NCBI GenBank assembly: GCA_965224025.1
Contig: OZ245033.1
Span: forward strand, 96,001-160,000
DNA from: Candidatus Multivorans sp.
GTDB lineage: Bacteria; Acidobacteriota; Thermoanaerobaculia; Multivoradales; Multivoraceae
Reading direction: 5' to 3'
DNA length: 64,000 nt
Shown: one piece after another, positions 1 to 45,046 of the stretch
Layout: every line of letters starts with the position of its first letter
Numbering within the stretch: position 1 is the stretch's first letter
Position numbers and translations under genes: made by a program
The notes under the pieces: generated by a model
Told to the model about the DNA's origin: nothing
Databases searched by the model: none
What the model saw: only the letters and a program-made list of their open reading frames with translations

Positions 1-982
1 CGAAGCTCAACGGCACCAGCGCCAGGGGCGCCGTGGCGGCGACGCTCAGCCAGGCGGGCGCCGGGAGCTCGAGGGAGAAGGGCACGACGTAGAGCAGCAG
101 GAACGGCAGGTAGCCGCCGGCAACGCCGAACGCGATCCACTGCGTCTGGCGGCCCTGTTCCCAGCCGCGACGGGACAGCAGACTGCGACCGAGGACCGCG
201 GCCGCCGCCAGCGCGTAGACGACGAGCAGGACGAGTTCGATGCGGTCCTGCTGCTCCATGGTGGCTGCGTTCAACCCGCCGGTGAGCATTCCGTTGCCGA
301 AGATCTGGTCGAACTGCACGACCAGGAGTGCCGTGGCCGGCAGGTAGAGCCAGGGCACGGCGCGCCGCAGCCAGCGGGACCGCGGCCGCGCCGGGAACAC
401 GAGGAAGAAGTGCAGGGTGAGGGGCGGCAGCAGGAGGCGGCAGACGCTGTCGACCAGGTAGAAGATGCGGTCGATGCCGTCGTAGGGCGCGGCCGGCGTC
501 AGCAAGTAGACGGCGGCCGACGTCAACGTCCAGAGGTGGAAGAGCAGGATGGGCCGGCTGCGCTGCCGGCTCAGCGTGTAGAGGCCGATCAGCAGGTAGG
601 CGATCCCGGTCAGGGCCAGCACGAGGTAGGACCAGTCCAGGGTCACCCCGGGCAGGCTGTGGCGGGCCGAAACCAGTTCGTCGTCCCGAAGCACCTGCAG
701 GTCGCTCTCGCTGCAACAGCGCAGCAACCGGTCCAGTTCGTCGGCGGAGAGCGCCCGTTCCCCGTTGACCAGGACGACGATGTCGCCGGTCTCCAGGCCG
801 GATGCCTCGTCTGCCGACGCCACGCGCAGTCCGCTGTCGGTCGCCTCGGCCACGAGGCCGATCGTCTGGAAGGAGGCCACCTTGCGGCCGACCGAGAACC
901 CGCCCAGCCCGACGACCAGAATGGTCAGCAGGAGCAACGCCGCGGTGAGGCCGAGTCGGGCCGGTCGGGACTCGATGCGCAT
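1..982 (-). CDS. 5' part of a membrane sensor protein (PDZ-like periplasmic domain + multi-TM region), probably a sensor histidine kinase; runs off window start
   Basis: Not in the ORF track. Minus-strand reading from ATG 982 gives MRIESRPARLGLTAALLLL..., PDZ-like SGLETGDIVVLVNGE, then many hydrophobic helices (LHFFLVFP), open to position 1. Confidence 0.7.
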   Translation of the reverse strand, partial: MRIESRPARLGLTAALLLLTILVVGLGGFSVGRKVASFQTIGLVAEATDSGLRVASADEASGLETGDIVVLVNGERALSADELDRLLRCCSESDLQVLRDDELVSARHSLPGVTLDWSYLVLALTGIAYLLIGLYTLSRQRSRPILLFHLWTLTSAAVYLLTPAAPYDGIDRIFYLVDSVCRLLLPPLTLHFFLVFPARPRSRWLRRAVPWLYLPATALLVVQFDQIFGNGMLTGGLNAATMEQQDRIELVLLVVYALAAAAVLGRSLLSRRGWEQGRQTQWIAFGVAGGYLPFLLLYVVPFSLELPAPAWLSVAATAPLALVPLSF

Positions 983-1070
983 CCGGGATCTGCTTCTTGT
1001 GGGGTGTGGCTTCTTAGTCTCAGGCGCGGCCCGGGGCTACCCTTGTGGGGGCCTAATCAGTATGTCCTAT

Positions 1071-1086
1071 AGCACGTGCTGTGCCA
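1071..1086 (-). promoter_or_regulatory. sigma-54 (-24/-12) promoter upstream of the sensor gene
   Basis: Minus strand TGGCACAGCACGTGCT fits TGGCACNNNNNTTGCW spacing (GG...GC), about 90 nt upstream of ATG 982. Confidence 0.55.
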
Positions 1087-1307
1087 CCGGACATCGGCGC
1101 TTGGCCCTTGATTCTACGGCAGGTTAGCTGCGCGTGGGTTGGCGGATGTTCAATCTATTGATTGCGGAACGGTCTGTTGAAGTTCTTGGGCGCATGGCAC
1201 GGACTCTTGGATTCAAGATCCGGAGCTTCTCAACAGAAGCAGCGCGGGAGCTTCGCCAAGTCGACGCCGTCCAGCCCGTTCGGTTCCGGCGGGGGCCAGT
1301 GACTCGC

Positions 1308-3365
1308 CTAGAAGCGGACCGCGATCCCAGCCACGATGCGGCGGCGGAGCTGGTCGGGGTCGTGGCTGGAACTGATCGGCACGTGTCCGCGGCTGAGTTG
1401 CATCTCGAGCTGCAGGGCCCAGTTCTGCGGTCCCGTGACCCAGGGCAGGCCCTGGGTCAGCACGACCTGGATGCGCTCCACGGAGAGCACGGTGTCCCGA
1501 CCGCCGGCGGGCCGGAAGTCGGCGGCGTCGTGGGTCACGGGCGAGAGTCCCTGTTCGACCCAGCGGTAGGCGACCAGGACGCCGGTCGAGCTGCGCTCGA
1601 ACTGGGTGTCGGCGCTGGCGACGAGGTAGCGGACCTCGTTGCGGAAACTGCCGCTGCCGCCTCTGGCGCGCAGCAGACCGCCGCCGCCGGCGGCCGCCGA
1701 GGAACTGACGCGGGTCAGGATCTTCTCGCCCAGGCGCTGCTGCAGACCGAACTGAAGTTCCTCGACCTGGTCGCCGTCGACCAGCAGCAGGCTCTCCAGC
1801 CGGTCGAAGATGTCGCGGCTGAAGTACAACCGGACGTTGTCGGCGAACTGCCGCCGGTTGGCGCCGAACTCGAAGCGATGGTCCTGGTCCGATGCGCCGA
1901 GCCGGCGGCTGAGCTTGACCCGGTAGCAGTGCTCGTAGGCCGTGCCGCAGGCTTCGTCGTCCTGGTACTGCACCGGCAGGAAGTCGCGGAAGAGAAGCTC
2001 TTCGGAGTCGACCCGCTGGCTGGCCGCGATCCTGGCCAGCCAGCGCGAACCGAGTTCGACCACGAAGCCGGCCTGAGGCGTGAACGAGAGACTGCCGTCG
2101 CTCAGGGTGCTGAACATCCCGTACTCGAGGACGACGGTGGGCTGGATCTCCCAGTCGCCCTGACCGAAGACGTCGAAGCGCTGGTGGGAATCCTCGCCCC
2201 AACTGGAAAACCGGCCGTTGCCGTAGGCCTGCCGTTCGCGGTAGCTGACGCCGGTCTCAAGCGACGTGGTGGCGGTGATCTGCCGCTCGTAGGCGCCGCG
2301 AAACTCCAGGGTGGTCGACGACATCGGTGAATCGATCGCGGCCAGCGCCTGGCTGTGTACCCCGCTGGGGCCGGCGTAGAGATCGCCGAAGCCGTGATGG
2401 AAGTTGTTGTCCGCGGTGTAGCGGGCCTCGAAGTGCGAGGCGCCGCCGCCGGCCGCCTGTTCCAGGCGCACGCCGTAGCTCTCCAGACCGGCGCCCGCGG
2501 CGGAGTCCCAGTCGTCCAAGGCCCCGGCCTGGGCGCCTTGGAAGCGGTGACGCTGCGACGTGAACTGGATGTTGGAGCCCCGGCGGTTCACGTTGAGCGC
2601 GAAGGCATGGCTGTCGCCGAGCGGCTGCTGGGCCGTATCGGTACGGAAGGCCTGACGCTTGAACTCGCGCAGATCGGAGCGGAGGGCGAGCTGCGTTTCG
2701 CCGAACTGGCTGCGGAGATCGAGCTGGCTGCCCAGAACCCGGGCGCCGGCCCCGCCGGCCTCTTCGATGCCGGAAAGGGTCCGTAGCTCCGCCTCGAATC
2801 GCTCCCGCTGAATCGCCGTCTCTAGCGCCCAGCCCTGGTCGTCGGCAATCGCCTCGGCGATCTGGATCTGGCGCAGCACGTCGCTGGGGATGCGCGCGCG
2901 GACCGACCAGAAGTCCTCTTCGTCCTCCTCGCCGCCCTTGCCGGAGCGGTGCCCCCGGGCGCCCAGCTCGAAGTCGAGCGACTGGACCGATTCGCTCGTG
3001 GTCCGGGTCAGTTCCACCACCGCGGGAACGTATCCCGGCCGGTGGGCGATCACCCGGTAGATACCCGCGGACAGGGGCTGGAAGGCATAGCGCCCGAATC
3101 GATCGGTCGTCGTCCGGAGCTTGCTGCTGTCGGCGACGTCGTAGACGTAGACCTGGGCCGCGGGCAGCGGCGCCTTGCCGGCATTGACGCGGCCGACCAG
3201 CCGCCCCGATGTCGGATCGCCGAGGCTGGGCACGTCGAGGCCCGCCCGGAGCGGCGCGGCGGCGAACAGCGCGACCGCGGCGACCGGCGCCAGGACTCCA
3301 GCCGAGAGCAGGCGCGCGCGCGCCAGGGTCGACCCGGAGTCGCCGGGATGGTTCCGGCAATTCAT
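1308..3365 (-). CDS. Secreted/outer-membrane protein with carboxypeptidase-regulatory-like domain and probable beta-barrel
   Basis: Signal peptide; TTTDRFGRYAFQPLSAGIYRVIAHRPGY motif; amphipathic beta-strands; C-terminal VRF. Start ATG 3365 or GTG 3374. Confidence 0.65.
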   Translation of the reverse strand: MNCRNHPGDSGSTLARARLLSAGVLAPVAAVALFAAAPLRAGLDVPSLGDPTSGRLVGRVNAGKAPLPAAQVYVYDVADSSKLRTTTDRFGRYAFQPLSAGIYRVIAHRPGYVPAVVELTRTTSESVQSLDFELGARGHRSGKGGEEDEEDFWSVRARIPSDVLRQIQIAEAIADDQGWALETAIQRERFEAELRTLSGIEEAGGAGARVLGSQLDLRSQFGETQLALRSDLREFKRQAFRTDTAQQPLGDSHAFALNVNRRGSNIQFTSQRHRFQGAQAGALDDWDSAAGAGLESYGVRLEQAAGGGASHFEARYTADNNFHHGFGDLYAGPSGVHSQALAAIDSPMSSTTLEFRGAYERQITATTSLETGVSYRERQAYGNGRFSSWGEDSHQRFDVFGQGDWEIQPTVVLEYGMFSTLSDGSLSFTPQAGFVVELGSRWLARIAASQRVDSEELLFRDFLPVQYQDDEACGTAYEHCYRVKLSRRLGASDQDHRFEFGANRRQFADNVRLYFSRDIFDRLESLLLVDGDQVEELQFGLQQRLGEKILTRVSSSAAAGGGGLLRARGGSGSFRNEVRYLVASADTQFERSSTGVLVAYRWVEQGLSPVTHDAADFRPAGGRDTVLSVERIQVVLTQGLPWVTGPQNWALQLEMQLSRGHVPISSSHDPDQLRRRIVAGIAVRF

Positions 3366-3366
3366 G

Positions 3367-4143
3367 TCAGCCACTGACTATAGCGGATGAGTCGGCCGGT
3401 AGACCGAGTGTCCGCGCCGGCACAAAGACGATGACCTCCGCCGCGCCCGCGGCCCGCAGGCACCGGGCGGCCCGACCGGCCGTGGCGCCCGTGGTGACGA
3501 CATCGTCGACCAGGAGCACGACGCGGTCACGGACGTCGGCGGGGCGGGGGCAGTGGAACACGACGGTCGGGTTGGCGAGCCGCTGGCGCCGGCTCCGGCC
3601 GACCTGCGGCCGGCCCAGGGTCCGCCGTCGCAGCGCGGAGCGCAGGGGGCGCTCGAGCTGCCCGGCCAGCGGGCGGGCGATCGACTCGGCATGGTTTCGG
3701 CCGCGGACGAGGCGGCGGCGCCAGTGCATCGGCATCGGGACGATCAACTCCGCGCGGCGCAGTTCCATTCCCAGCGCGCCCACCGCCTCGGCCGCGATGT
3801 GGCGGCCCAGGTAGTCGAGGCGCTGGTGCTTCAGTCCCAGGATCACCTTGTCGATCGGCGGCCGGTACACCCAGAGCCAGAAGAAGGCGTCGCAGCCCTC
3901 CAGCCGGTCACCGGCCGCGGCGCCGCGCGGAGGCGGCGCCAGCAGGCGGCGGCAGTTCGGGCACAGGCTGAGCTCCCGCTGCGCCGGAGCGGAGCAGGCG
4001 AGACAGACCCGGGGCAGGAGCAGGTGAAGGGCGAGGGCAAGGACGCGTCGCGCGCAGTTCCCCGCGCTCCGGCCAAGGCGTAGCGCCGCGGCCCGGATCC
4101 GCGCCACTCGCGAACCAGTCCGGGCGCGAGTCATCGAGCGCAC
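3367..4143 (-). CDS. comF: ComF family competence protein (Zn ribbon + phosphoribosyltransferase); start uncertain
   Basis: CLAC...LCPNC, VPMPMHWRRRLVRGRNHA, VLLVDDVVTTGAT. Confidence 0.85.
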   Translation of the reverse strand: MRSMTRARTGSRVARIRAAALRLGRSAGNCARRVLALALHLLLPRVCLACSAPAQRELSLCPNCRRLLAPPPRGAAAGDRLEGCDAFFWLWVYRPPIDKVILGLKHQRLDYLGRHIAAEAVGALGMELRRAELIVPMPMHWRRRLVRGRNHAESIARPLAGQLERPLRSALRRRTLGRPQVGRSRRQRLANPTVVFHCPRPADVRDRVVLLVDDVVTTGATAGRAARCLRAAGAAEVIVFVPARTLGLPADSSAIVSG

Positions 4144-28819: not shown

Positions 28820-30298
28820 TTACTCCCCGTCCACGACGCCAGACCGTATCCCCCGGCCGGGCAGAGGTCCTTCGACCAGTTCGCCGTCCCGGACCACGAA
28901 CACGCCGTCGACGAGCACGTGGGGAATCCCCGCCGAGGGCACGGCCGGCTCGGCGAAGGTGGCCCGGTCGGCCACGCTCCCCGGGTCGAAGACGGTGATG
29001 TCCGCGTCCGCTCCGACCGATACCCGGCCCTTCTTGCGCATAGCCGGCGCCACCGCTTCCAGCCGGCGGGCCGGGTCCAGGGTCATCTTGCGGATCGCAG
29101 CCATCAGGCTGAGCCGTCTCTGGTCCCGGACGTACCGCCCCAGCACGCGCGCGAATGTCCCCGCGCCGCGCGGATGGGCTCGGCCGTCGATGTAGCCGAC
29201 GCCGTCGCTCGCGATCATCACCGCGGGGTGCGCGATCGCGTCCCCGAGTTCCTGCTCGGGGATGATGTGGGCGATGACGATCGCGGGCGCCGCGTCCGGA
29301 GTCTCCATTCGCCGGTGCATGAAGCCGGCCTCGTCCAGCCGCTCGCCGGTGGCGACCCATTCGATGTCGCGGTAGTGCGCGCCCATGCGCTCTCTCCAGC
29401 CCGGATCGAAGATCGCGGAGCGAATGTCCGTCGACGCGGCGGTGTACGGATAGACCTCGGTGGTCACGTCGATCCCGGCCGCGGCGGCGGTGGCGATCAT
29501 GTCGATGACCATGGGCATCTGCTCCAGGCCGGTCGAGCCGATGTGGACGATGTGAACCGAGCCGCCGGCGCCCGCGGCGTCGGCGATCATCTCCTGGACG
29601 GCGGAGATCGCGCTCTCCGGCTCCTTCATGCCCGCGTAGCGGATATGGGCGAAGACGGTGACGCCGGCTTCCGCGGCGGTCCCGAACATGCGGAAGATCT
29701 CGGTCCGCGAGGCGCCAGGCTGGTACTGGAGCGGCAGACCGACTCCGAGAGCGCCGTCGGCGAGTCCCTCCCGCAACGTTTCCTGGATGGCTTCGATCTG
29801 CTCGGGACTCGCCTCCTCGTTGCGCGCGGCCTGCTCATCTTCGCCGAACGCCAGCACCCGCGCTGCACCGTATGCCGTGGTGGCGCCGAAGTGGATGCGC
29901 CAGGAACCCTCGCGCTCCTCGTACCACTCGTCGACGGGAAACGCCCCGCCCTCGAGCTCGAACGCCGCGGTCACGCCGTCGCGCACCTGCAGGTCGCGGC
30001 TGAAGGGATCGTGGCCGTGGGCATGCAGATCGATGAACCCGGGGGCCACCACGAGTCCCGAGACGTCGACGACCTCGGTTCCGTCCAGAGGCTCTGGCGA
30101 GATGGCTGCGACCGTGCCGCCATCGATCCCGACGTCCATCACGGCCTCGAGACCCGACTCCGGATCCATGACGCGGCCGCCGCGAAGCACCAGGTCGTAC
30201 TGGACCGGCTCGGGCGCGCAGGCGATCAGCAGCAGAACCACGAACGGAAACGCGAGCGCGGACCGCCTGGCGCGCAGCCAAAGCCAATCAGACTGCAT
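28820..30298 (-). CDS. Amidohydrolase, N-acyl-D-amino-acid deacylase-like lipoprotein
   Basis: Lipobox LIAC; PGFIDLHAH; IASDG; HPRGAGTFARVLG; GADADITVFD. Confidence 0.85.
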   Translation of the reverse strand: MQSDWLWLRARRSALAFPFVVLLLIACAPEPVQYDLVLRGGRVMDPESGLEAVMDVGIDGGTVAAISPEPLDGTEVVDVSGLVVAPGFIDLHAHGHDPFSRDLQVRDGVTAAFELEGGAFPVDEWYEEREGSWRIHFGATTAYGAARVLAFGEDEQAARNEEASPEQIEAIQETLREGLADGALGVGLPLQYQPGASRTEIFRMFGTAAEAGVTVFAHIRYAGMKEPESAISAVQEMIADAAGAGGSVHIVHIGSTGLEQMPMVIDMIATAAAAGIDVTTEVYPYTAASTDIRSAIFDPGWRERMGAHYRDIEWVATGERLDEAGFMHRRMETPDAAPAIVIAHIIPEQELGDAIAHPAVMIASDGVGYIDGRAHPRGAGTFARVLGRYVRDQRRLSLMAAIRKMTLDPARRLEAVAPAMRKKGRVSVGADADITVFDPGSVADRATFAEPAVPSAGIPHVLVDGVFVVRDGELVEGPLPGRGIRSGVVDGE

Positions 30299-35112: not shown

Positions 35113-36624
35113 CTAGCCTCCGCCGCCCGTGGCTGCGGCCGCCGCGACCGGTTCCGGATAGACGCCCCCACCCAACGCCAGAATCAGGTCCGTCCGCGAT
35201 TCGAGTTGCTGCCGGCGAGCGGCGAGCAACTGGCTCTCCGACTGAAACGACGTCCGTTGACTGTCGAGTACCTGCAGATAACCGACAAGGCCCTGCCGGT
35301 AGCGGCCCTCGGTCAGGCGTTCCGCCTCCCGGCTCTCGGTAGCCGCCCGCTCCAGCGCCCCCGCCCGCTCCGCCAGCATCCGTTCCGCCACGAGACCCGA
35401 CTCCACTTCGGCGAAGGCCGCGAGCGCCGTCTGCAACCAGTTCGCCTCCGCCGCGTCGAGACCGGCAGTCACCAGATCCAGCCCGGCCCGTAGGCGGCCG
35501 CCCGAAAGCAGGGGTTGCAGCAGTCCGGCGGCGAGACTCCAGACCGAGAAGTCGCCATCCAGCAGGTCGCTCAGAGAACCACTCGACGTGCCTGACGATC
35601 CGTCCAGTCTGAAGGTCGGGTAGAGAGAACGGCGGGCGGCGCGAATCCGCTGCGACGAGGCGATCGCGCGGTACTCCGCGGCCCGCAGGTCCGGACGGCG
35701 CGCCAGCAGGTCGGCCGGCACACCGGTCTCGGGCAGCGGCGGCAGATCGGGAAGGCCCGCGGCCGCCTCGATCTCGCCGGCCGGATAGCGGCCCAGCAGC
35801 ACCTCCATCTGCCGGCGCAGGCCGTCGAGCGTCTGCTTCTGCGCCGCCAGCGAGGCCTCGACGGTCGCTATCTGAGTCCGTGCCTGCCGCACCTCGAGCG
35901 CGGTCGCCACGCCCCGCCGGTAGCGGGCCTCGACCCGATCGCGCGTCCGCTCGCGGCTCGCCAGAGTGCGCTCCAGGAGTTCCACCTGTTGCATGGCCTC
36001 AACGACGCCGAAGTACACCTTCGCGACCTGGCCGGCGATCGAGAGGCGCGCCCCGGCGAAGTCGGCTTCGCCCGCCGCCGCCTCAGCCAGCGAGGCTGCC
36101 GTGAGGGCGCGGAGCCTCCCCCACAGGTCGACCTCCCAGCGGATGTTCAGGGACAAACCGTAGCTGGTGAAGGCGAAGCTGCGCACGCCGCCGGGCTCGA
36201 AGCCCGGAATCGGGATCGCCTCGGTCAGGCCGCTCTGGGCGGTGTTCTGCTTGCGCCGCCCAGGGTCGAGCGCCGCCTCCAGCTCCGGTCGCCGAGCCGC
36301 GCCGTCGAGCCGGGCCTGAGCGAAGGCCGCCTCGACATTCGCGGCCGCGGCACGCAGGCTCGCGTTGTGCTCCAACCCCTCTACGATCAACCCCGACAGC
36401 AACGGATCGCCGAAGTCGCTCCACCAGTCCGATGCGACCTGCGAAGAACCGGCCGGCGCCTTTGCCGCGCCCGCTACCTCGCCGTACTCGGCCGTCGCAG
36501 GCGCTTCCAGGGCCGGCGGACCCGTGCCCACGGCGCTGCAACCGAGCCAGAGGATCGGGGCGGCAACCAGCGGCAGCGACCAGCGCATCCGGCCCTGGAC
36601 GCCACCATGAAGGGGAACCATCAT
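35113..36624 (-). CDS. RND outer-membrane factor lipoprotein (NodT/OprM family); start probably 36588
   Basis: LGC lipobox; WWSDFGDP; WEVDLWGRL; PADLLARRPDL; LILALGGG. Confidence 0.92.
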   Translation of the reverse strand: MMVPLHGGVQGRMRWSLPLVAAPILWLGCSAVGTGPPALEAPATAEYGEVAGAAKAPAGSSQVASDWWSDFGDPLLSGLIVEGLEHNASLRAAAANVEAAFAQARLDGAARRPELEAALDPGRRKQNTAQSGLTEAIPIPGFEPGGVRSFAFTSYGLSLNIRWEVDLWGRLRALTAASLAEAAAGEADFAGARLSIAGQVAKVYFGVVEAMQQVELLERTLASRERTRDRVEARYRRGVATALEVRQARTQIATVEASLAAQKQTLDGLRRQMEVLLGRYPAGEIEAAAGLPDLPPLPETGVPADLLARRPDLRAAEYRAIASSQRIRAARRSLYPTFRLDGSSGTSSGSLSDLLDGDFSVWSLAAGLLQPLLSGGRLRAGLDLVTAGLDAAEANWLQTALAAFAEVESGLVAERMLAERAGALERAATESREAERLTEGRYRQGLVGYLQVLDSQRTSFQSESQLLAARRQQLESRTDLILALGGGVYPEPVAAAAATGGGG

Positions 36625-36719
36625 CGTTTGTTGTGGGTACGGACAATCGACCCGGGAGTTCGACGCCGAGCCGAGACTACTAGCCGGCCGCCGGCCGGGA
36701 ATCAGTTAGCGTCATCGCG

Positions 36720-37808
36720 ATGGTTACCGAGGATCGCGCCGGCAACCCGCCTTCCGGACACCGCCGCGTCGACCGGCAGCTCAAGCTCGACCTGATCGAG
36801 GCCGCGGTGCGCGAGAACGAGGCCCAGCTTGGCCGGCAAAGCCCCGAGCACGCGGAGAACGACAGCCCGAAACACCGCCGGCGGCGCCGTTTCTCGCCCT
36901 GGAGCCTGCTCCTGCTGGCGCCGATCGCCGGTACCGCCGGACTCGGCTACCTGGAGCTGAAGCGTCCCGGAGCGGACATCCAACCCGATCGGCCCGTCGA
37001 GGCAACACAGCCGGCGCCCGAAGTGCTCTTCACCGAGCCACCGGAGCCTCTCGACCTCAGCGTCTTCCCTCTGCCCATCAAGAGGATCGTGCTCGATCCG
37101 GGCCACGGTGGCGCCGCCTCCGGCACGGTGGCCGGAGGCCTGACCGAGAAAGACCTCGCGCTCGACATCGCCCGTCGGGTGCGCGAGCTGCTGTCCGACC
37201 GGTACCGCGTCGCGATGACCCGCGAGGCGGACATCGACGTCGAACTCGATCGCCGGTCCGGCATCGCCAACCGGGCCGGGGCCGACCTGTTCGTCTCGAT
37301 TCACGTGAACTGGCTGACGCGGAATCAGAGCTGCGGCGTCGAGACCTACTTCCTCGGCCCCACAGACGACCCCGAGCTGACCGCACTCGCCGAACGGGAG
37401 AATGCCGAGGCGCACGGCTACTCTCTGGCCGACCTGCGCCGCCTCCTCGACGGCGTCTACGCACAGGCCATGCAGGACGAAAGCCGGACTCTCGCCAACG
37501 CGGTTCAGGACGCCCTGTTCGAACAACTGCGGACATCGAATCCGGGCCTGCGGAATCGCGGCGTGAAGTCAGCGCCCTTCGTGGTCCTGATCGACGCCGA
37601 GATGCCGGCCATCCTGGCCGAGGTGTCCTGCCTTTCGGACGCCGGCGAGATCGACCGGCTGCGCGAGAGCGACTACCTCCAGTCGATCGCCGAAGCCCTC
37701 GACACGGGCATCCGGAGCTACGCCGACTCGCTTCGCCTGCGGGCCGAGCCGCCGGCAGAGGACGCGGCGCTAAGCTCCGCGGCTTTGGAGATCAGGGAAG
37801 AGCAGTGA
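36720..37808 (+). CDS. Membrane-anchored N-acetylmuramoyl-L-alanine amidase (Amidase_3)
   Basis: N-terminal TM; IVLDPGHGG, EKDLAL, FVSIHVN, PAILAEV. Confidence 0.92.
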   Translation: MVTEDRAGNPPSGHRRVDRQLKLDLIEAAVRENEAQLGRQSPEHAENDSPKHRRRRRFSPWSLLLLAPIAGTAGLGYLELKRPGADIQPDRPVEATQPAPEVLFTEPPEPLDLSVFPLPIKRIVLDPGHGGAASGTVAGGLTEKDLALDIARRVRELLSDRYRVAMTREADIDVELDRRSGIANRAGADLFVSIHVNWLTRNQSCGVETYFLGPTDDPELTALAERENAEAHGYSLADLRRLLDGVYAQAMQDESRTLANAVQDALFEQLRTSNPGLRNRGVKSAPFVVLIDAEMPAILAEVSCLSDAGEIDRLRESDYLQSIAEALDTGIRSYADSLRLRAEPPAEDAALSSAALEIREEQ

Positions 37809-38839
37809 GCAACACCACATCCAACGGAGGAGTCCTCAAGGTCGGAATCGACCTGGGGACCTCGCGGAGTTCGATCTCGGCCGCGAACGGCCAGCGCCAC
37901 ATGGTGCAGAGCTACGTTGGCTGGCCCCGCGACATGGTGGCGAGGAAGGTGCTCGGACGCGACGTGCTGGTCGGCGCCGATGCACTGGAGCACCGCCCCA
38001 TGCTCAACCTGCGCCGGCCCCTGGAGCGGGGTCTGATCAAGGAGGGATCGGTCGAGGACGAGAAGGCAGTGCGCGAACTCGTTCGCCGGCTGCTGGAACT
38101 CGCGGCGCCCGGCGGGCCCGGGCCGGCGCCCGCGATCCACGCCGTCGTCGGCGTTCCCGCCGAGACGCTCAGGGTCAACCGCCAGAACCTGCGGCGCATT
38201 CTGACCGGCCAGGTCGCCAACACGATGATCGTCTCCGAACCGTTCGCCGTCGCCTACGGACTGGATGCCCTGCTTCACACGATGGTCATCGACATCGGCG
38301 CCGGCACGACCGACTTCTGTGTCTTGATGGGCCGCTTCCCGACCGAGGACGATCAGCGCACCCTGAGCGCCGCCGGCGACGCGGTGGACCGTCACCTGCA
38401 CGGCCTGATCGAAGAGCGCTACCCCGACGCCTCGGTGTCCATCCACATGGTGCGGGCCTGGAAGGAACGTCACTCCTTCGTCGGCGAGGGCGCCCCGGTG
38501 GTGGTCGCCGCGCCTGTGCGCGGCAAGCCGACGCGCATCGACATCACCGAGCCCATGCGGCGCGCCTGCGAGAGCCTGCTGGAGCCCTTGCGCGAGACGA
38601 TGCTGGACCTCATCGCAAGGGTCGAACCCGAGTACCAGAGCCGGATCCGCAACAACGTGATCCTCACTGGCGGCTCCGGCCTGATCCGCGGCCTCGGCGC
38701 CGAGCTGCAGCAGGCCCTCGGCGAACTCGGCGGCGGCCGCGTACGCGTGGTCAAGGATCCGGTCTTCGTCGGCTCGGACGGCGGCCTGAGCCTGGCCAGG
38801 GACGTCGACGACGAGTACTGGAAGCGCCTCTCCGCCTAG
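37805..38839 (+). CDS. Actin-like protein, MamK-like
   Basis: GIDLGTS, VVGVPA, IVSEPFAVAYGLD, IDIGAGTTDFC, KERHSFVG, GKP..DITEP..ACE, PEYQ, GGSGLIRGL, VKDPVF.G, YWKRL. Confidence 0.85.
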   Translation: MSNTTSNGGVLKVGIDLGTSRSSISAANGQRHMVQSYVGWPRDMVARKVLGRDVLVGADALEHRPMLNLRRPLERGLIKEGSVEDEKAVRELVRRLLELAAPGGPGPAPAIHAVVGVPAETLRVNRQNLRRILTGQVANTMIVSEPFAVAYGLDALLHTMVIDIGAGTTDFCVLMGRFPTEDDQRTLSAAGDAVDRHLHGLIEERYPDASVSIHMVRAWKERHSFVGEGAPVVVAAPVRGKPTRIDITEPMRRACESLLEPLRETMLDLIARVEPEYQSRIRNNVILTGGSGLIRGLGAELQQALGELGGGRVRVVKDPVFVGSDGGLSLARDVDDEYWKRLSA

Positions 38840-38847
38840 CTTCGGTT

Positions 38848-39100
38848 GCACCCGCCCGCTTCGGGGCTCCGGGGGAGGTCTCCCAGGTGCCGTGCCATCC
38901 GTGCGCCCGATGACGGGCGCACGGACTGGTTCACGGGTGGCGCGGATCGCGCCACCCGGGTTCGCGCTTGGTCGGCTTGCGAACGGGGGTGCGCTCACTG
39001 CACTACGCTCGCTCCGGCTGGGCGTCCGTTGACGTCAGGTCGTCGGGCGTCGCTCGCTCCGAGCCACCTGGGAGCCTCCCCCGGAGCCCCCGTGCTGGCT
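38848..39100. repeat. Structured inverted-repeat element copy B, containing a nested double-hairpin repeat (38898-38960)
   Basis: IR 38863-38889 / 39065-39090; GCACCCGCCC lead-in and core shared with copy A. Confidence 0.7.
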
Positions 39101-39165: not shown

Positions 39166-39960
39166 TCACTTTGTCGCGCCGTTCGGCCTGCGGGCGGGCG
39201 GGCCTGGCAGCAACGTCGCCAGCTCGGTCAGGTCGGCCACCTTGGGGCAGTCGACCTCCGGCCAGTCGTTCCATGGATCGAGCAGAACGGCGTGAACGCC
39301 AGCGGCCCGAGCGCCTACTACGTCGGCCGCATAGAGGTCGCCAACGTGAACGGTGCGCTCCGGCCGGGCGCCGATCGTCTTGAGAGCGGCTTCGAAGACT
39401 CGCGGATCGGGCTTCTCGAAACCGACCGTCTTCGAGTCGATCAGAGCGTCGAAGAGCGGGCCGAGCCCAATCGACTCAACGTTTCGCTTCATGCTGCCGT
39501 CGGAGTTGCTGACCACGGCCATGCGATAGCCGAGCGAGCGGATCCGCTCCAGCGCCTCCTTCCTTCCTGGCAGTCGCCGGTTCCAGAGTAGTTCGTTCCG
39601 GCCGGGCACGTAGAGGCGCTGCGCAAGCCCGGAGGCCATGCCGGCAAGCTCGACGCCATCGAAGCAGGCAGCCGGCAGTCGGTCCAGGATCGCCTCCAGA
39701 TAGAAGCGGAAGGTGGACCCGCCCTCAGTCGACTGCAACTCCGCCGACAGGGCCGCCGAGATATCGGGCCGGGCCGCCGCTTCCGCGCGCTCCAACTGGC
39801 GCCCGGAGCAATCGAGGCCCAGGTCCGACGCGACCTCGGCGATGCGCTCGAAGTTCATGGACAGGAAGGTGTTTCCCGCGTCGAAGAAGATCGTGTCCAG
39901 TTCTACCCAGGGCACGTCGCGCGGCGGCGTCATGTTCGTCACGGCGTCGTAGTCTGCCAT
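39166..39960 (-). CDS. HAD-superfamily hydrolase
   Basis: FFDAGNT, VVSNSD, EKPDP, HVGDLYAADVVGA. Confidence 0.9.
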   Translation of the reverse strand: MADYDAVTNMTPPRDVPWVELDTIFFDAGNTFLSMNFERIAEVASDLGLDCSGRQLERAEAAARPDISAALSAELQSTEGGSTFRFYLEAILDRLPAACFDGVELAGMASGLAQRLYVPGRNELLWNRRLPGRKEALERIRSLGYRMAVVSNSDGSMKRNVESIGLGPLFDALIDSKTVGFEKPDPRVFEAALKTIGARPERTVHVGDLYAADVVGARAAGVHAVLLDPWNDWPEVDCPKVADLTELATLLPGPPARRPNGATK

Positions 39961-40037
39961 CAGGCGCGATCGTCTATTCTCAGCACCCACACGGGCGGGA
40001 CGCGCGTGCCGCCGGACCGGCACACCGGAGGACGATC

Positions 40038-41899: not shown

Positions 41900-42703
41900 T
41901 CAACGATTCCGCGTCAACGGCACAAACCGCACCGGGATCACGCGGGTTCGCTCCACCTCTCCGTCGGCCTTCTTCTCCAGCACCTGGAGTTCCTGGCGGC
42001 CGCCCCGCGGTCCCATCGGCAGAACGAGCCGGCCGCCGGTCGCCAACTGCTCGATCAGCGGCCGCGGCACGTGGTCCGGCGCCGCCGTGACGACGATCGC
42101 GTCGAACGGCGCCTCGTCGGGCCAACCGGCGTAGCCGTCGCCGATCCGGGTCGTCACGTTCTCGTACCCGCCCATATCGAGCGCCGCCGCCGCCCGCAGC
42201 CCCAGGGGCTCCACGATCTCGATCGTGTACACGTGATCCACGATCTCGGCCAGCACGGCGGCCTGGTAACCCGAGCCGGTGCCGATCTCGAGCACCTTGT
42301 CCCCCGCGTCGGGCACCGCAAGCTCGGTCATCAGCGCCACGATGTACGGCTGCGAGATCGTCTGCTGCCAGCCGATTCCAAGCGGCGAATCGCGATAGGC
42401 CCAGTCGCGTATCTCCTCGGGAACGAACAGGTGACGCTCTACCTTCTCCATCGCGCCGATCACCCGGACGTCAAGCACCGGCGGGCGGCCGTCGCGGGGC
42501 TCGGCGATCGTGTCGCGCACCATGCGCCGCCGGAGTTCGGCGAAGTCCACCCGTTCCTGGGCCGACACGGTCGAGCCCGCGAACCCCATGACTGCTGCTG
42601 CCGCAACCCCGAGCCGCCAAGCCGGGCTCGAACCGCGCCGGAAGCCCGCGTGTAGCCTTCGCAGGCTCTTGCCGACACCGCCGCCAACCGAGATCCGCGT
42701 CAT
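41900..42703 (-). CDS. pcm: Protein-L-isoaspartate O-methyltransferase
   Basis: QTISQPYIVALM, VLEIGTGSGYQAA, APFDAIVVTAA, VRFVPL; N-terminal signal-like extension. Confidence 0.92.
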   Translation of the reverse strand: MTRISVGGGVGKSLRRLHAGFRRGSSPAWRLGVAAAAVMGFAGSTVSAQERVDFAELRRRMVRDTIAEPRDGRPPVLDVRVIGAMEKVERHLFVPEEIRDWAYRDSPLGIGWQQTISQPYIVALMTELAVPDAGDKVLEIGTGSGYQAAVLAEIVDHVYTIEIVEPLGLRAAAALDMGGYENVTTRIGDGYAGWPDEAPFDAIVVTAAPDHVPRPLIEQLATGGRLVLPMGPRGGRQELQVLEKKADGEVERTRVIPVRFVPLTRNR

Positions 42704-42769
42704 CGTCTCTCCCGTCACTCCCGCCGTCAGTCTGTGGAACCGACCGGGCCTCCAAGCGTACATGGGGTC

Positions 42770-43124
42770 ATGGGCCTGCTCGAGCGCCGGCTTCGCCATG
42801 CAGCAGCTCCTGCAGGTCTGGCTGCTGGCGGGCGTACTTCCAGCATCTTCAACGCCGGCGCCTTCCTGACCGTGTTCCCCTTCATCGTCCTTCGCGTCTA
42901 CGAGGGCGACGCGGAACTCCTGTCCTGGCTGATGATCGTCTTCTTCGCGGGCGCTGTCGTCTCCAATCTCCGGCCGCGTCATGTCCGTCTTCGGCCTCGG
43001 CCTGCTCGGCGGCTCGCTGATCGGCGCCCTCGCCGGCCTCGTCCCCGGCATGGCTGCCTCGGTGCTGCTGTTCGTGTACAGCATGGCGGCAACCGGGCTG
43101 TGGCGGTATCGGAGTTCACCGTAG
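42770..43124 (+). pseudogene. Decayed MFS-type transporter fragments
   Basis: Hydrophobic pieces in different frames (IFNAGAFLTVFPFIVLRVYEG; FGLGLLGGSLIGALAGLVPGM...LWRY). Confidence 0.5.
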
Positions 43125-43216
43125 CCTGGCCAGCGCCTGCGCGGCAGAAACCGGGTGCGCCGACGTTCTGACCGGCATTCGGCGAGGTAGCGCCCGGCCT
43201 CGGGAGTTCCGGCGCG

Positions 43217-43966
43217 CTAGTGGTTGGGCAGATCTCCGCGCAACCGAGCCTTGAGACTCGCCACCTCGCGCTCCAACCGGGCGACGGCTGCCCGGCCTGC
43301 ATCTGCCGCGGCTCTGGCTTCCTCTGCCGCGGCTCTGGCTTCCCCGACCTGATCGCTGCGCTCGAAGGCCTCCTCGCACGTCGGCAGGTACTTTCCCGGC
43401 GCTTGGTCGAAGAATCGGAGTTCGCCGCGCTCGAGCCGCAGCTCCAGGCCCAGGAGGCTGCGGAAACGGAGGCTGCCGTCGACCTGGACGACCGGGGCGA
43501 CAGGCAGGTACCCGCCATCGACGAGCCGCGAACCCTTGAGCACCGGGTCCAGGTAGTCGCCCGTGGGGTCGTACTGCCAGTACTCGTCCACCCCAAGTTG
43601 CCGGTACAGCCGGCGTTTCCGGCCCTCGTCCACCGTCCTCGTGTGCCTGGACGTGATCTCCAGCACGAAGTCGGGCGTCCTGCCTCCTTCCGCCCATACC
43701 AGCCAGGTGCTCCTCGGCGGCAACTTGGGCGCGCCGAGGACCACGAAGATGTCCGGCGCCACCGACCGCTTCGGATCGCCCTCCTCGTAGTAGAGGAGCA
43801 TGTCGACGCCAACGTAGACGTCCGGCCGGCCGCTGAAGTGCCGGCCGATGGCTTGACGCGCGTCCATCGTGACCACGGCGTGGCGTTCTGTTTCGGCCAT
43901 GGGGATGCCGTCCGAATGCGGATACTCGACCGAAGCGATAGCGACCTGGCTCTTCATTTGAACCAT
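43217..43966 (-). CDS. Uma2 family restriction-endonuclease-like protein
   Basis: YPHSDGIPMAET, VAPDIFVV, PDFVLEITS, GVDEYWQYDP; C-terminal coiled coil. Confidence 0.9.
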   Translation of the reverse strand: MVQMKSQVAIASVEYPHSDGIPMAETERHAVVTMDARQAIGRHFSGRPDVYVGVDMLLYYEEGDPKRSVAPDIFVVLGAPKLPPRSTWLVWAEGGRTPDFVLEITSRHTRTVDEGRKRRLYRQLGVDEYWQYDPTGDYLDPVLKGSRLVDGGYLPVAPVVQVDGSLRFRSLLGLELRLERGELRFFDQAPGKYLPTCEEAFERSDQVGEARAAAEEARAAADAGRAAVARLEREVASLKARLRGDLPNH

Positions 43967-44077
43967 CGGCAAGGACCCTCCATGGCCAGCGGCGGCCGGG
44001 CGCCGTCCTGGAACCCGGGCGCCGCTCACGGCAAAACGTCCTCTTGACTATAGACGGATTGGCGGCCGCAAACCCGG

Positions 44078-45046
44078 TCACTCGCTGCCGATCAACGGCG
44101 GAAAACGCACTTCCCCCACCCGGGTCCGCTCCACAGAACCGTCGGCCCGCTTCTCCAGTACCTGGAGTACCTGCATTCCGTTCTCAGGACCCACCGGCGC
44201 CACGAGCTTCCCGCCCACTGCAAGCTGATCGATCAACGTCCGCGGCACGGACTCCACCGGCGCCTTGATGACGATCGAGTCGAACGGCGCGAGCTCTGGC
44301 CACCCCTGGTTGCCGTCGTCGATCCGGATCGTCACGTTGCCGTAGCCAAGGTCGCCCAGAGTGGCGGCCGCCCGTACGGCCAGGGGCTCAACGGGCTCGA
44401 TCGTGTAGACGTGGCCGGCCATCTCGGACAGCACGGCGGCCGAGTAGCCGGAGCCGGTACCGACCTCCAGCACCTTGCGGTCGGGAACAGGCACCGTGAA
44501 TGCGGTGAACACGGAGGCCTCTTTGCCGGCGCCGATCTCCACTTCGCGGGTGAGGACGGGCACTGCAAGTTCGGCCATCAGCAGAACGGTGTATGCATCT
44601 GGAATCGTCCGCCCCCAGCCGATCGGCAGCGCAGTGGGTCGATAGGCCCTGTCTTGCTGGGTCTCCGACACGAAGCGGTGCCGGGGCACCCGCATGATGA
44701 CGTTCAGAGCGCGGTCGACGCTGATGTCGGTCGGAGGTCCCGACCGGCCAAACAGGAACTCCATCCGCTCACGCTCTTCAAGCCGCTCGTAGCGGGCGAG
44801 GCCGGCCACGCTGCTGGCCACCTGGACTGCGAAGTACGATACCGCGAAGAGCGTGAACACGCCGGCCGCCCACACGACGACAGGACCGAACGCAAGCGGG
44901 CGAGCGGCCGAACGATCCGCCAGTCGCCCCTTCAGCACAGCCGCGAGAGGACGGTCAAGCCGAATCCCCTGACGGCCGAACAGCCCATGCCCCCGCGCCT
45001 GGTCGCCGATTCGCGGCTGGAAAGCCAAGGGTCGCCAGATCTTCAC
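44078..45046 (-). CDS. pcm: Second, divergent protein-L-isoaspartate O-methyltransferase paralog
   Basis: VPRHRFV, LPIGWGRTI, VLEVGTGSGY, APFDSI, VRFPPL; N-terminal TM. Confidence 0.75.
   Translation of the reverse strand: MKIWRPLAFQPRIGDQARGHGLFGRQGIRLDRPLAAVLKGRLADRSAARPLAFGPVVVWAAGVFTLFAVSYFAVQVASSVAGLARYERLEERERMEFLFGRSGPPTDISVDRALNVIMRVPRHRFVSETQQDRAYRPTALPIGWGRTIPDAYTVLLMAELAVPVLTREVEIGAGKEASVFTAFTVPVPDRKVLEVGTGSGYSAAVLSEMAGHVYTIEPVEPLAVRAAATLGDLGYGNVTIRIDDGNQGWPELAPFDSIVIKAPVESVPRTLIDQLAVGGKLVAPVGPENGMQVLQVLEKRADGSVERTRVGEVRFPPLIGSE

Follow-up and report, generated by a model that had tools for sequence, protein, structure and literature searches.

MamK is the textbook case of an actin dedicated to one organelle. 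Relatives of MamK outside the magnetotactic bacteria were found in three cases: BeeR, a MamK-related actin of the Verrucomicrobiota that forms three-stranded tubes and carries an N-terminal extension of 30–50 residues (PMC11929497), a filament-forming MamK-family protein of non-magnetotactic Saltatorellota (10.1101/817700), and a Thiomargarita homologue encoded next to a flotillin-like gene (10.1101/2022.04.11.487978). The parts of these three accounts available to us mention no amidase, and in the literature searched we found no description of a MamK-type actin paired with an amidase. Here we describe such a pair. It lies in a 64,000-nucleotide stretch of the genome of the acidobacterium Candidatus Multivorans sp. 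(assembly GCA_965224025.1, contig OZ245033.1, positions 96,001–160,000), referred to below as the window, and consists of an open reading frame (ORF) for a 362-residue protein with a Pfam Amidase_3 domain (36720–37808, forward strand), followed on the same strand by an ORF for a 344-residue MamK-family actin-like ATPase of what appears to be a distinct, amidase-linked subfamily (37805–38839). We favor, with a probability of roughly 0.6, the reading that the two genes form a dedicated cytoskeleton–hydrolase module made up of a MamK-family actin and a bitopic peptidoglycan amidase.

By analogy, the closest functional precedent would be the pairing of the bactofilin BacA with the M23 endopeptidase LmdC in Hyphomonas and Rhodospirillum, for which the part of the report available to us describes adjacent genes, recruitment of the enzyme through a conserved N-terminal cytoplasmic motif of LmdC, and direct binding of a peptide of LmdC residues 1–38 to the bactofilin polymer (PMC10945521). 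The present locus resembles that system in that a polymer gene adjoins the gene of an apparently bitopic wall hydrolase, the two are co-conserved, and a motif is situated in the hydrolase's N-terminal cytoplasmic segment. The differences are that bactofilin does not bind nucleotide whereas the polymer protein here would be an actin-like ATPase, that the hydrolase is of the Amidase_3 and not the M23 type, that the LmdC motif is a β-hairpin and the one here a predicted helix, that the taxa are others, and that the contact here is a predicted one. Binding of an actin-fold polymer to a bitopic or adaptor protein by way of a short cytoplasmic helix or tail in the latter is familiar from FtsA with the tail of FtsN, MreB with RodZ, and ParM with ParR; these belong to other actin families, and their partners regulate or adapt and are not themselves wall hydrolases. 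That a periplasmic amidase can be controlled from within the cytoplasm has a precedent in FtsEX.

We infer for the pair a mechanism in which the cytoplasmic actin-like ATPase would polymerize, and a helix in the amidase tail would dock on an actin surface formed by helix 140–157, the C-terminal helix 330–344 and neighboring loops. The tail would then tether the polymer to the membrane, because no membrane anchor is obvious in the actin itself, and the polymer would dictate the position or activity of the amidase along the envelope, in the service of cell separation or local wall remodeling. An earlier note on this DNA, made from the sequence alone, proposed at its core that the cytoplasmic tail of the amidase is engaged by a MamK-type actin in a non-magnetosomal role, and this proposal is supported, as far as computation can take it, by the clade-wide linkage of the genes, the tail motif, the predicted complex, the absence of a magnetosome gene set and the separate mreBCD genes presented below. 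New here are the MamK-family subfamily and a probable actin-based example within the known cytoskeleton-guided wall hydrolases. The pair defines a large and coherent actin subfamily whose partner is obligate and can be identified, and whose predicted interface, of about 17 residues, is concrete and open to mutation, and it makes the role of MamK-like actins in non-magnetotactic bacteria testable. If the reading is correct, the module would be an actin-based counterpart to the control of wall cleavage from the cytoplasm by bactofilin–LmdC, MreB–hydrolase and FtsEX–amidase systems, and a route, not described before, by which the cell steers the cleavage of its wall from within.

Family assignment and phylogeny of the actin

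The window actin matches the NCBIfam MamK model NF040964 along model positions 1–331 of 335 (360.3 bits, E = 8.6e-108), which falls short of the curated cutoff of 400 bits; relatives from the same clade score 392.7 (P0121) and 425.2 bits (P0122), so that the clade straddles the cutoff. It reaches 209.6 bits against the BeeR model NF053558 (cutoff 530), and 39.1 and 50.1 bits against the MreB models TIGR00904 (cutoff 365.75) and NF010539 (cutoff 293), all of them below the respective thresholds, and Pfam returns weak MreB_Mbl and Actin matches only. Against sequences from the PDB it scores 269 bits with MamK 5JYG (residues 11–342), 149 bits with BeeR 8R2N and 45 bits with MreB; the identity to Magnetospirillum MamK 5JYG is about 134 of 333 positions, or roughly 40%, by manual count of the HMMER alignment midline. 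The earlier note had recognized a MamK rather than an MreB from a list of motifs, and each of those motifs turns out to be an identical stretch in the HMMER alignment to 5JYG; the full-length MamK score, set against those for BeeR and MreB, bears out the call itself.

Conservation was examined in paired alignments of the amidase (A1, 44 sequences) and the actin (A2, 44 relatives), which drew on 43 of 66 usable loci, with start codons in the relatives chosen by script. Loci L081, L116 and L134 were dropped for doubtful starts, and L090 because its amidase frame runs on for 1178 residues across the actin. Residues D16, G18, E145, D163, G165, A166, G167, D170 and G289 are invariant in A2, and the invariant residues of the nucleotide-binding motifs align with the same motifs of 5JYG; as to which of these are catalytic, we rely on an assumed assignment. 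Judged by these sequence comparisons and the phylogeny below, the protein belongs to the MamK family taken broadly, in which it stands nearer to MamK than does BeeR, and represents a distinct subfamily. With MamK of the solved structures (PDB 5JYG, 5LJV and 5LJW) it shares full-length homology and the nucleotide-binding motifs; like these and BeeR, it presumably forms filaments. It differs from MamK in scoring below the family cutoff, in falling in a separate clade, in the lack of a mamAB-type cluster and in having a wall amidase as its apparent partner. BeeR, as a MamK-family actin of non-magnetotactic bacteria, shows that the family has functions other than those of the magnetosome, and the window actin differs from it in its low score to 8R2N and in lacking the disordered N-terminal extension of 30–50 residues; the alignment to both MamK and BeeR begins at residue 11, and, to judge from this short N-terminus, the window protein itself appears to lack any element for binding membranes. 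At E ≤ 0.001 it is matched by more than 5,800 database proteins, and all of the 120 matches listed are at least 61% identical to it. Relatives are automatically annotated as 'rod shape-determining protein MreB', a widespread misannotation that the present assignment corrects.

That annotation, together with the high similarity to MamK, would be expected if the actin were a rod-elongation MreB paralogue or a stray or remnant magnetosome gene, a true MamK; either origin seems extremely unlikely. The genome (5.14 Mb in three contigs, 100% complete by marker count) holds a single MamK-like gene; its canonical mreB (470.6 bits) lies about 1 Mb from the pair, with mreC and mreD coming after it. With the NCBIfam models it yields 82.6 bits for MamO (cutoff 800), 34.8 for MamP (cutoff 300) and 75.7 for MamQ (cutoff 250), generic matches of the kind also seen in non-magnetotactic controls, and no match to the MamI model, in a search that lacked a positive control; no magnetosome gene set is present above the family cutoffs. 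We rejected the magnetosome remnant on these sub-cutoff or missing matches and on the separation of the actin clade from that of P0151, the representative with 463 bits to 5JYG, and the MreB paralogue on its 39–50 bits against cutoffs of 293–366 and on the mreB–mreC–mreD operon elsewhere in the genome. The presence of the actin in every one of the 41 genomes sampled in the order also speaks against either origin. The earlier statement that mam and mre genes are missing nearby is upheld at the level of the genome; for the window itself, annotation with Pfam covered the interval from 30 to 46 kb only.

The phylogeny was built with an IQ-TREE quick search (LG+G4, with the Shimodaira–Hasegawa-like approximate likelihood ratio test, SH-aLRT) on 94 rows. 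Of these, 72 are full-length representatives of clusters formed at 50% identity and 21 are linked actins, with only 20 linked loci included, and the genome's own MreB serves as outgroup; 78 of the 150 representatives were excluded because they cover fewer than 300 residues. All of the linked actins fall in one clade (SH-aLRT 99), accompanied by three representatives of unknown context. P0151 marks a separate clade (SH-aLRT 99) that corresponds to MamK proper, and P0227 (567 bits to 8R2N) marks the BeeR clade, which is basal in the tree; these two labels were assigned indirectly, by scoring six representatives against PDB sequences. The deep nodes have SH-aLRT values of only 85–93 and the rooting depends on the single long branch to MreB. 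The window actin does not group with bona fide MamK, the amidase-linked clade standing apart from both the P0151 clade and BeeR; among the several clades of the MamK family in this tree, that of the amidase-linked actins is derived and well supported. The suggestion in the earlier note that theirs might be an ancestral role of this group of actins finds no support, because the linked clade is derived and neither the sampled loci of nearby lineages nor six homologues of about 40% identity have the amidase.

Among the representatives in the tree we also observed a 768-residue protein (P0190) in which a complete FtsZ (Tubulin plus FtsZ_C, residues 4–307) is fused to a C-terminal MamK-family actin domain (residues 435–753); this tubulin–actin fusion falls within the clade holding the Magnetospirillum-like MamK representative. 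A further clade (SH-aLRT 100) comprises 14 representatives of 523–1232 residues (P0133–P0149, P0154 and P0155) with the MamK-like domain at the C-terminus, and the N-terminal 190–900 residues gave no Pfam match in the nine members scanned. We considered whether these could be amidase–actin fusions. The long proteins with a C-terminal MamK-like domain carry no Amidase_3 domain, and their N-termini match no Pfam family except in P0190, so they do not constitute Rosetta-stone evidence for the pairing.

Linkage of the amidase and actin genes

The stop codon of the amidase gene (TGA) and the start codon of the actin gene (GTG) share the four nucleotides GTGA at 37805–37808 (forward strand), as read directly from the sequence; this overlap had been reported in the earlier note, and the coordinates given there are matched exactly by the ORF calls. 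The same four-nucleotide overlap occurs in 22 of 65 pairs, and in 49 of them the junction lies within −8 to +10 nucleotides, with starts chosen by script. The pair is carried by soil and water bacteria and is conserved across the Thermoanaerobaculia and other Acidobacteriota: all 41 genomes sampled in the order carry the actin, at 58–94% identity, as do 25 of 301 evenly sampled genomes of the phylum at E ≤ 1e-60. Directly upstream of the actin gene, the amidase gene is found in 20/20 loci that represent 12 families of the order, in 77 of 80 loci from named genomes, and in all 13 class- and phylum-level loci, down to an actin identity of 51%; the sets overlap (at least six contigs occur twice) and the relatives are not independent of one another. 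Of the three misses among the named genomes, two (L105 and L121) offer no more than about 100 bp of sequence upstream, and L078 has an unrelated ORF of 433 residues there. The conservation of the linkage in relatives, which the earlier note had left to a neighborhood survey, is far beyond chance.

The boundaries of the linkage can be seen in a metagenome scan seeded with sister lineages, which gave 80 loci, 40 of them nearest the linked clade and 40 nearest to P0127, P0128, P0139 or P0156. The amidase is directly upstream in 38 of the 40 in-clade loci; of the other two, L190 has just 171 bp of upstream sequence and L199 is a true exception. In the 40 sister-clade loci it was found in none, 27 of these having at least 900 bp upstream. 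A similar picture is seen in the phylum of an unpublished Binatia-labeled metagenome-assembled genome (MAG), G333, where an in-clade homologue occurs in 2 of 121 sampled genomes, both with the amidase, and six homologues of about 40% identity have none; with two genomes of 121 only, we do not claim the module as established in a second phylum. Because the amidase is present in in-clade loci and absent from the sister-clade loci and those of about 40% identity, the linkage tracks the actin clade. There is no third conserved gene: the most frequent real cluster besides these two genes is found in 22 of 60 loci, and other neighbors are conserved within the genus only.

Several individual loci are of interest in themselves. 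At L078, a MAG contig of the same genus, the 433-residue ORF in the amidase's place upstream of the actin (114–1412, forward strand) has no Pfam match. At L199, a metagenome contig whose actin is 58% identical to the deep sub-clade, the upstream gene (2014–3537, forward strand) encodes an M48 peptidase with TPR repeats. In the sister-clade loci (L151–L184 and others, nearest to P0127, P0128 or P0139), a co-directional ORF of about 380 residues precedes the actin in 10 of 39 clustered loci; the example at L179 (2815–3954) has a sub-threshold DUF4407 match only, and from its position this ORF may be a different dedicated partner of the sister-clade actins. An in-clade actin with one in-frame TGA was seen in G359 (contig C24, L232), and in G008 the actin is split over two contig ends.

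We also considered a phage or defense origin. PADLOC gave a partial match of 21.5 bits for the actin and none for the amidase, and PHROGs gave generic endolysin-domain matches of at most 89 bits for the pair and a weak partition-protein match of 21 bits. The pair is chromosomal and follows taxonomy, and since the database matches are moreover weak or generic this origin was rejected.

The amidase and its predicted contact with the actin

The anatomy of the amidase agrees with that outlined in the earlier note. Pfam recognizes only Amidase_3 (PF01520; 6e-43, 147.3 bits against a gathering threshold of 27, residues 123–332), with no AMIN or LysM domain, and the AlphaFold2 model has a mean predicted local distance difference test (pLDDT) score of 80.8, with values above 90 over most of the catalytic domain. 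From the N-terminus, a conserved, putatively cytoplasmic helix motif, the candidate actin-docking peptide (residues 19–38, positions 36774–36833 on the forward strand, as are all features of this gene), lies on a modeled helix of residues 14–36 and is followed by a spacer (residues 39–57, 36834–36890) that ends in an arginine-rich patch, RRRRR, before a hydrophobic helix (residues 58–80, 36891–36959; helix 61–80 in the model), which we read as an uncleaved membrane anchor. A variable, presumed periplasmic linker (residues 81–108) and a conserved DPSVFPL-like box (residues 109–120) occupy 36960–37079, with conservation, given as the mean top-residue fraction in A1, of 0.28 and 0.58 respectively. 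The Amidase_3 catalytic domain comprises residues 121–342 (37080–37745) and contains a 42-residue insertion (residues 213–254, 37356–37481) at the position of the regulatory, autoinhibitory segment of AmiA, AmiB and AmiC.

Residues H129, E143, H195 and E301 are invariant in the 44 sequences of A1, in agreement with the earlier description of intact zinc ligands; we take the first three to be the zinc ligands and E301 to be the catalytic glutamate. The catalytic core and the insertion have conservation values of 0.66 and 0.67, and this strong conservation argues for a working enzyme rather than a mere anchor. The top Foldseek matches are AmiC 4BIN, AmiA 8C2O, Bartonella AmiB 3NE8, CwlD 7RAG and LytH 7TJ4, with 1.8e-17 for E. 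coli AmiC and a template-modeling score of 0.82 for E. coli AmiA, and in phmmer the sequences of 4BIN, 8C2O and 3NE8 align straight through residues 123–337, while the short amidase 5EMI aligns in two pieces that skip 213–254. By analogy with AmiA, AmiB and AmiC, whose regulation we assume to carry over, the insertion is possibly regulatory and the enzyme possibly autoinhibited. These enzymes, which act with FtsEX–EnvC and NlpD, have the closest catalytic domain, aligned through the insertion; the window amidase differs from them in having no AMIN domain or strict twin-arginine translocation (Tat) motif, in its apparent membrane anchor and cytoplasmic tail, and in scoring far below their equivalog cutoffs (90.2 against 400 for NF007652, 65.8 against 532 for NF007751 and 88.4 against 700 for NF038267, for AmiA, AmiB and AmiC respectively). 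The score against the CwlD model is 105, with a cutoff of 222. LytH, which acts with ActH (7TJ4), and CwlD, which acts with GerS (7RAG), are likewise Amidase_3 enzymes that a single N-terminal helix holds in the membrane and that require a partner; their partners are membrane proteins or lipoproteins that act outside the cytoplasm and not a cytoplasmic polymer, and LytH lacks the 213–254 insertion, its phmmer match covering residues 121–212 only. Because the genome holds two further Amidase_3 proteins of about 620–630 residues, one with LysM, the actin-linked amidase appears to be a specialized paralogue, and by its domain content it is the one without any wall-targeting domain.

The amidase is best read as bitopic, with the N-terminus inside and the C-terminus outside, since a basic patch before a membrane helix indicates an N-in topology under the positive-inside rule. 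Among 66 homologues there is a median of 6 lysines and arginines in the 18 residues before the hydrophobic stretch, which itself runs to 23 uncharged residues and a Kyte–Doolittle value (KD19) of 1.94, both as medians, and the distance from its end to the DxGHG motif is 29–76 residues. An arginine-rich patch directly before a hydrophobic segment is also what a long cleaved Tat or Sec signal might look like, in which case the mature enzyme would be soluble in the periplasm and the actin would contact the pre-protein only, for example to target it to an export site; the loose RRxhh pattern found in 32/66 homologues and the likeness of the catalytic domain to AmiA and AmiC, which in E. coli have cleaved export signals, fit this picture. 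We regard it as very unlikely, and a cleaved Tat signal in particular as unlikely: the strict twin-arginine consensus occurs in 0/66 homologues, the hydrophobic stretch has the length and hydropathy of a transmembrane helix, the alignment has no conserved AxA-type site after it, Pfam and NCBIfam gave no signal family at E ≤ 0.01, and a 20-residue motif with a conservation of 0.55 is unusual for the n-region of a signal.

That motif, approximately [LI]-K-R-x-L-L-x-x-A-V-x-E-N-L-x-L-I-x-G, has a conservation of 0.55 in A1 against 0.16–0.38 in its flanks, with N33 present in 43/44 sequences and K/R22 and V/I/L30 in 44/44. It begins about 5–12 residues after the initiator methionine in most lineages, behind a short variable start, and the deepest sub-clade retains a variant of it. 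A motif search by regular expression failed in 30/96 loci, mostly same-genus variants. When A2 and residues 1–57 of A1 were used as input for complex prediction, the interaction prediction score from aligned errors (ipSAE) was 0.81, 0.81 and 0.80 in three runs, and the best of three controls gave 0.32. Of 80 solved complexes 58 attain the mark used for this score, as do 2 of 110 mismatched pairs, counts that apply only approximately since our own alignments were used. The runs share at least 83% of their contacts, with a partner pLDDT of at least 57. On the amidase side the predicted interface comprises residues 21–37, which is the conserved motif, with N33, A29, I26 and L25 in the lowest-error pairs, and on the actin side residues 123–130, 140–157, 176–178 and 330–344, a surface that we take to be the cleft between subdomains IA and IIA used by other actin partners. 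Three positions specific to the linked clade, R123, R130 and L157, lie at the interface. The amidase tail is thus predicted to dock on the actin, and the complex prediction proposed in the earlier note places the tail motif itself in the contact.

Linkage in an operon does not by itself prove contact, and a rather unlikely alternative is that the two proteins serve a shared process, such as daughter-cell separation, and are co-transcribed without touching, the tail motif binding a divisome protein, lipids or an export factor instead. It is in keeping with this that 7 of 44 blind neighbor pairs also passed the complex test and that the enrichment of clade-specific residues at the interface is not significant. 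The linkage, however, coincides strictly with the extent of one actin clade and of the motif, in 49 of 65 pairs the genes are coupled in translation or closely spaced, and the score of 0.81 against a best control of 0.32 is obtained with the motif itself at the predicted interface.

The roles of the two proteins could also be the reverse of those we propose, the filament doing some other job, with an unknown cargo or in membrane shaping, and the amidase-like protein being mainly its membrane and wall anchor or its nucleator, with a tail that binds filament ends or monomers much in the way of ParR on ParM. The predicted site of helix 140–157 and the C-terminal helix would suit this, as we take it to be the IA/IIA cleft that ParR uses on ParM and that also takes part in longitudinal contacts, as would the family-wide conservation of most interface residues and the apparent lack of a membrane-binding element in the actin, judged from its short N-terminus. 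Conservation of 0.66–0.67 in the catalytic domain and insertion, the invariance of H129, E143, H195 and E301, and the lack of a third conserved gene as candidate cargo speak against such a reversal, and we consider it improbable.

Returning to the dedicated module, in which the polymer would position or regulate the amidase through its tail, a number of observations weigh against it. The complex score is a measure of model confidence, and the partner pLDDT is just 57–59. Peptide complexes of other actin-like proteins, namely ParM–ParR, FtsA–FtsZ, FtsA–FtsN and MreB–RodZ, have been solved, so the result could partly reflect likeness to these. Clade-specific residues are not significantly enriched at the interface (3/22 against 18/322, Fisher p = 0.14), and most interface residues are kept throughout the MamK family, so that a general groove for polymerization or for partners may be what the surface represents; if it serves subunit contacts, only monomers or filament ends would be open to the tail. 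The topology call rests on hydrophobicity and the positive-inside rule, the loose RRxhh pattern is present in 32 of the 66 homologues, and L078 and L199 are true exceptions to the linkage.

Binding at filament ends is itself the basis of a more specific proposal, which we put forward as possible though doubtful: the linked actins would be a third functional branch of the MamK family, cytomotive in nature, in which the tail helix binds the cleft at filament ends or on monomers in the manner of ParR on ParM, and ATP-driven growth or treadmilling moves or spaces the amidase. If this were so, wall cuts would be patterned from inside the cell without periplasmic cues of the AMIN, SPOR or LytM type, and each MamK-family clade may have its own cargo adaptor, be it magnetosome proteins, an amidase tail or a long N-terminal extension.

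Surroundings of the pair in the window

The two genes are an isolated unit, with a divergent gene upstream and a convergent one downstream. Upstream lies an outer-membrane efflux gene (Pfam OEP; 35113–36624, reverse strand), separated from the amidase start by a 95-bp intergenic region (36625–36719) that from its layout presumably holds the promoter; a scan for consensus sigma-70 promoters upstream of the amidase found nothing, which is weak evidence in a GC-rich genome. Downstream lies a gene for a HAD hydrolase (39166–40023, reverse strand), and in the convergent intergenic region before it, 59–119 nucleotides past the actin stop, are two GC-rich hairpins (38898–38925 and 38934–38958, forward strand) that a repeat search identified by perfect arms of 12 and 11 nucleotides with 100% complementarity. 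There is no T-tract at 38898–38958 and a terminator scan gave no call there; to judge from their sequence, the hairpins are possibly a transcript end, a terminator of non-consensus type, or a repeat element.

According to Pfam, the neighbors within 30–46 kb encode efflux components (RND, MFP and OEP), a HAD hydrolase, a di-haem peroxidase, two PCMT proteins and a Uma2 protein. The very high G+C content of the 28–46 kb region produces long spurious antisense ORFs over nearly every real gene (for example 28820–30298, reverse strand), and such antisense frames mimicked 'conserved' clusters, which numbered 57, 49 and 24 loci out of 60; when neighbors are counted from ORFs in this lineage, a filter against them is required. 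The two PCMT proteins are protein-L-isoaspartate O-methyltransferase paralogues of 393 and 321 residues with long N-terminal extensions, encoded at 41900–45046 on the reverse strand, and the gene for the Uma2-family endonuclease (43217–44029) is flanked by both of them.

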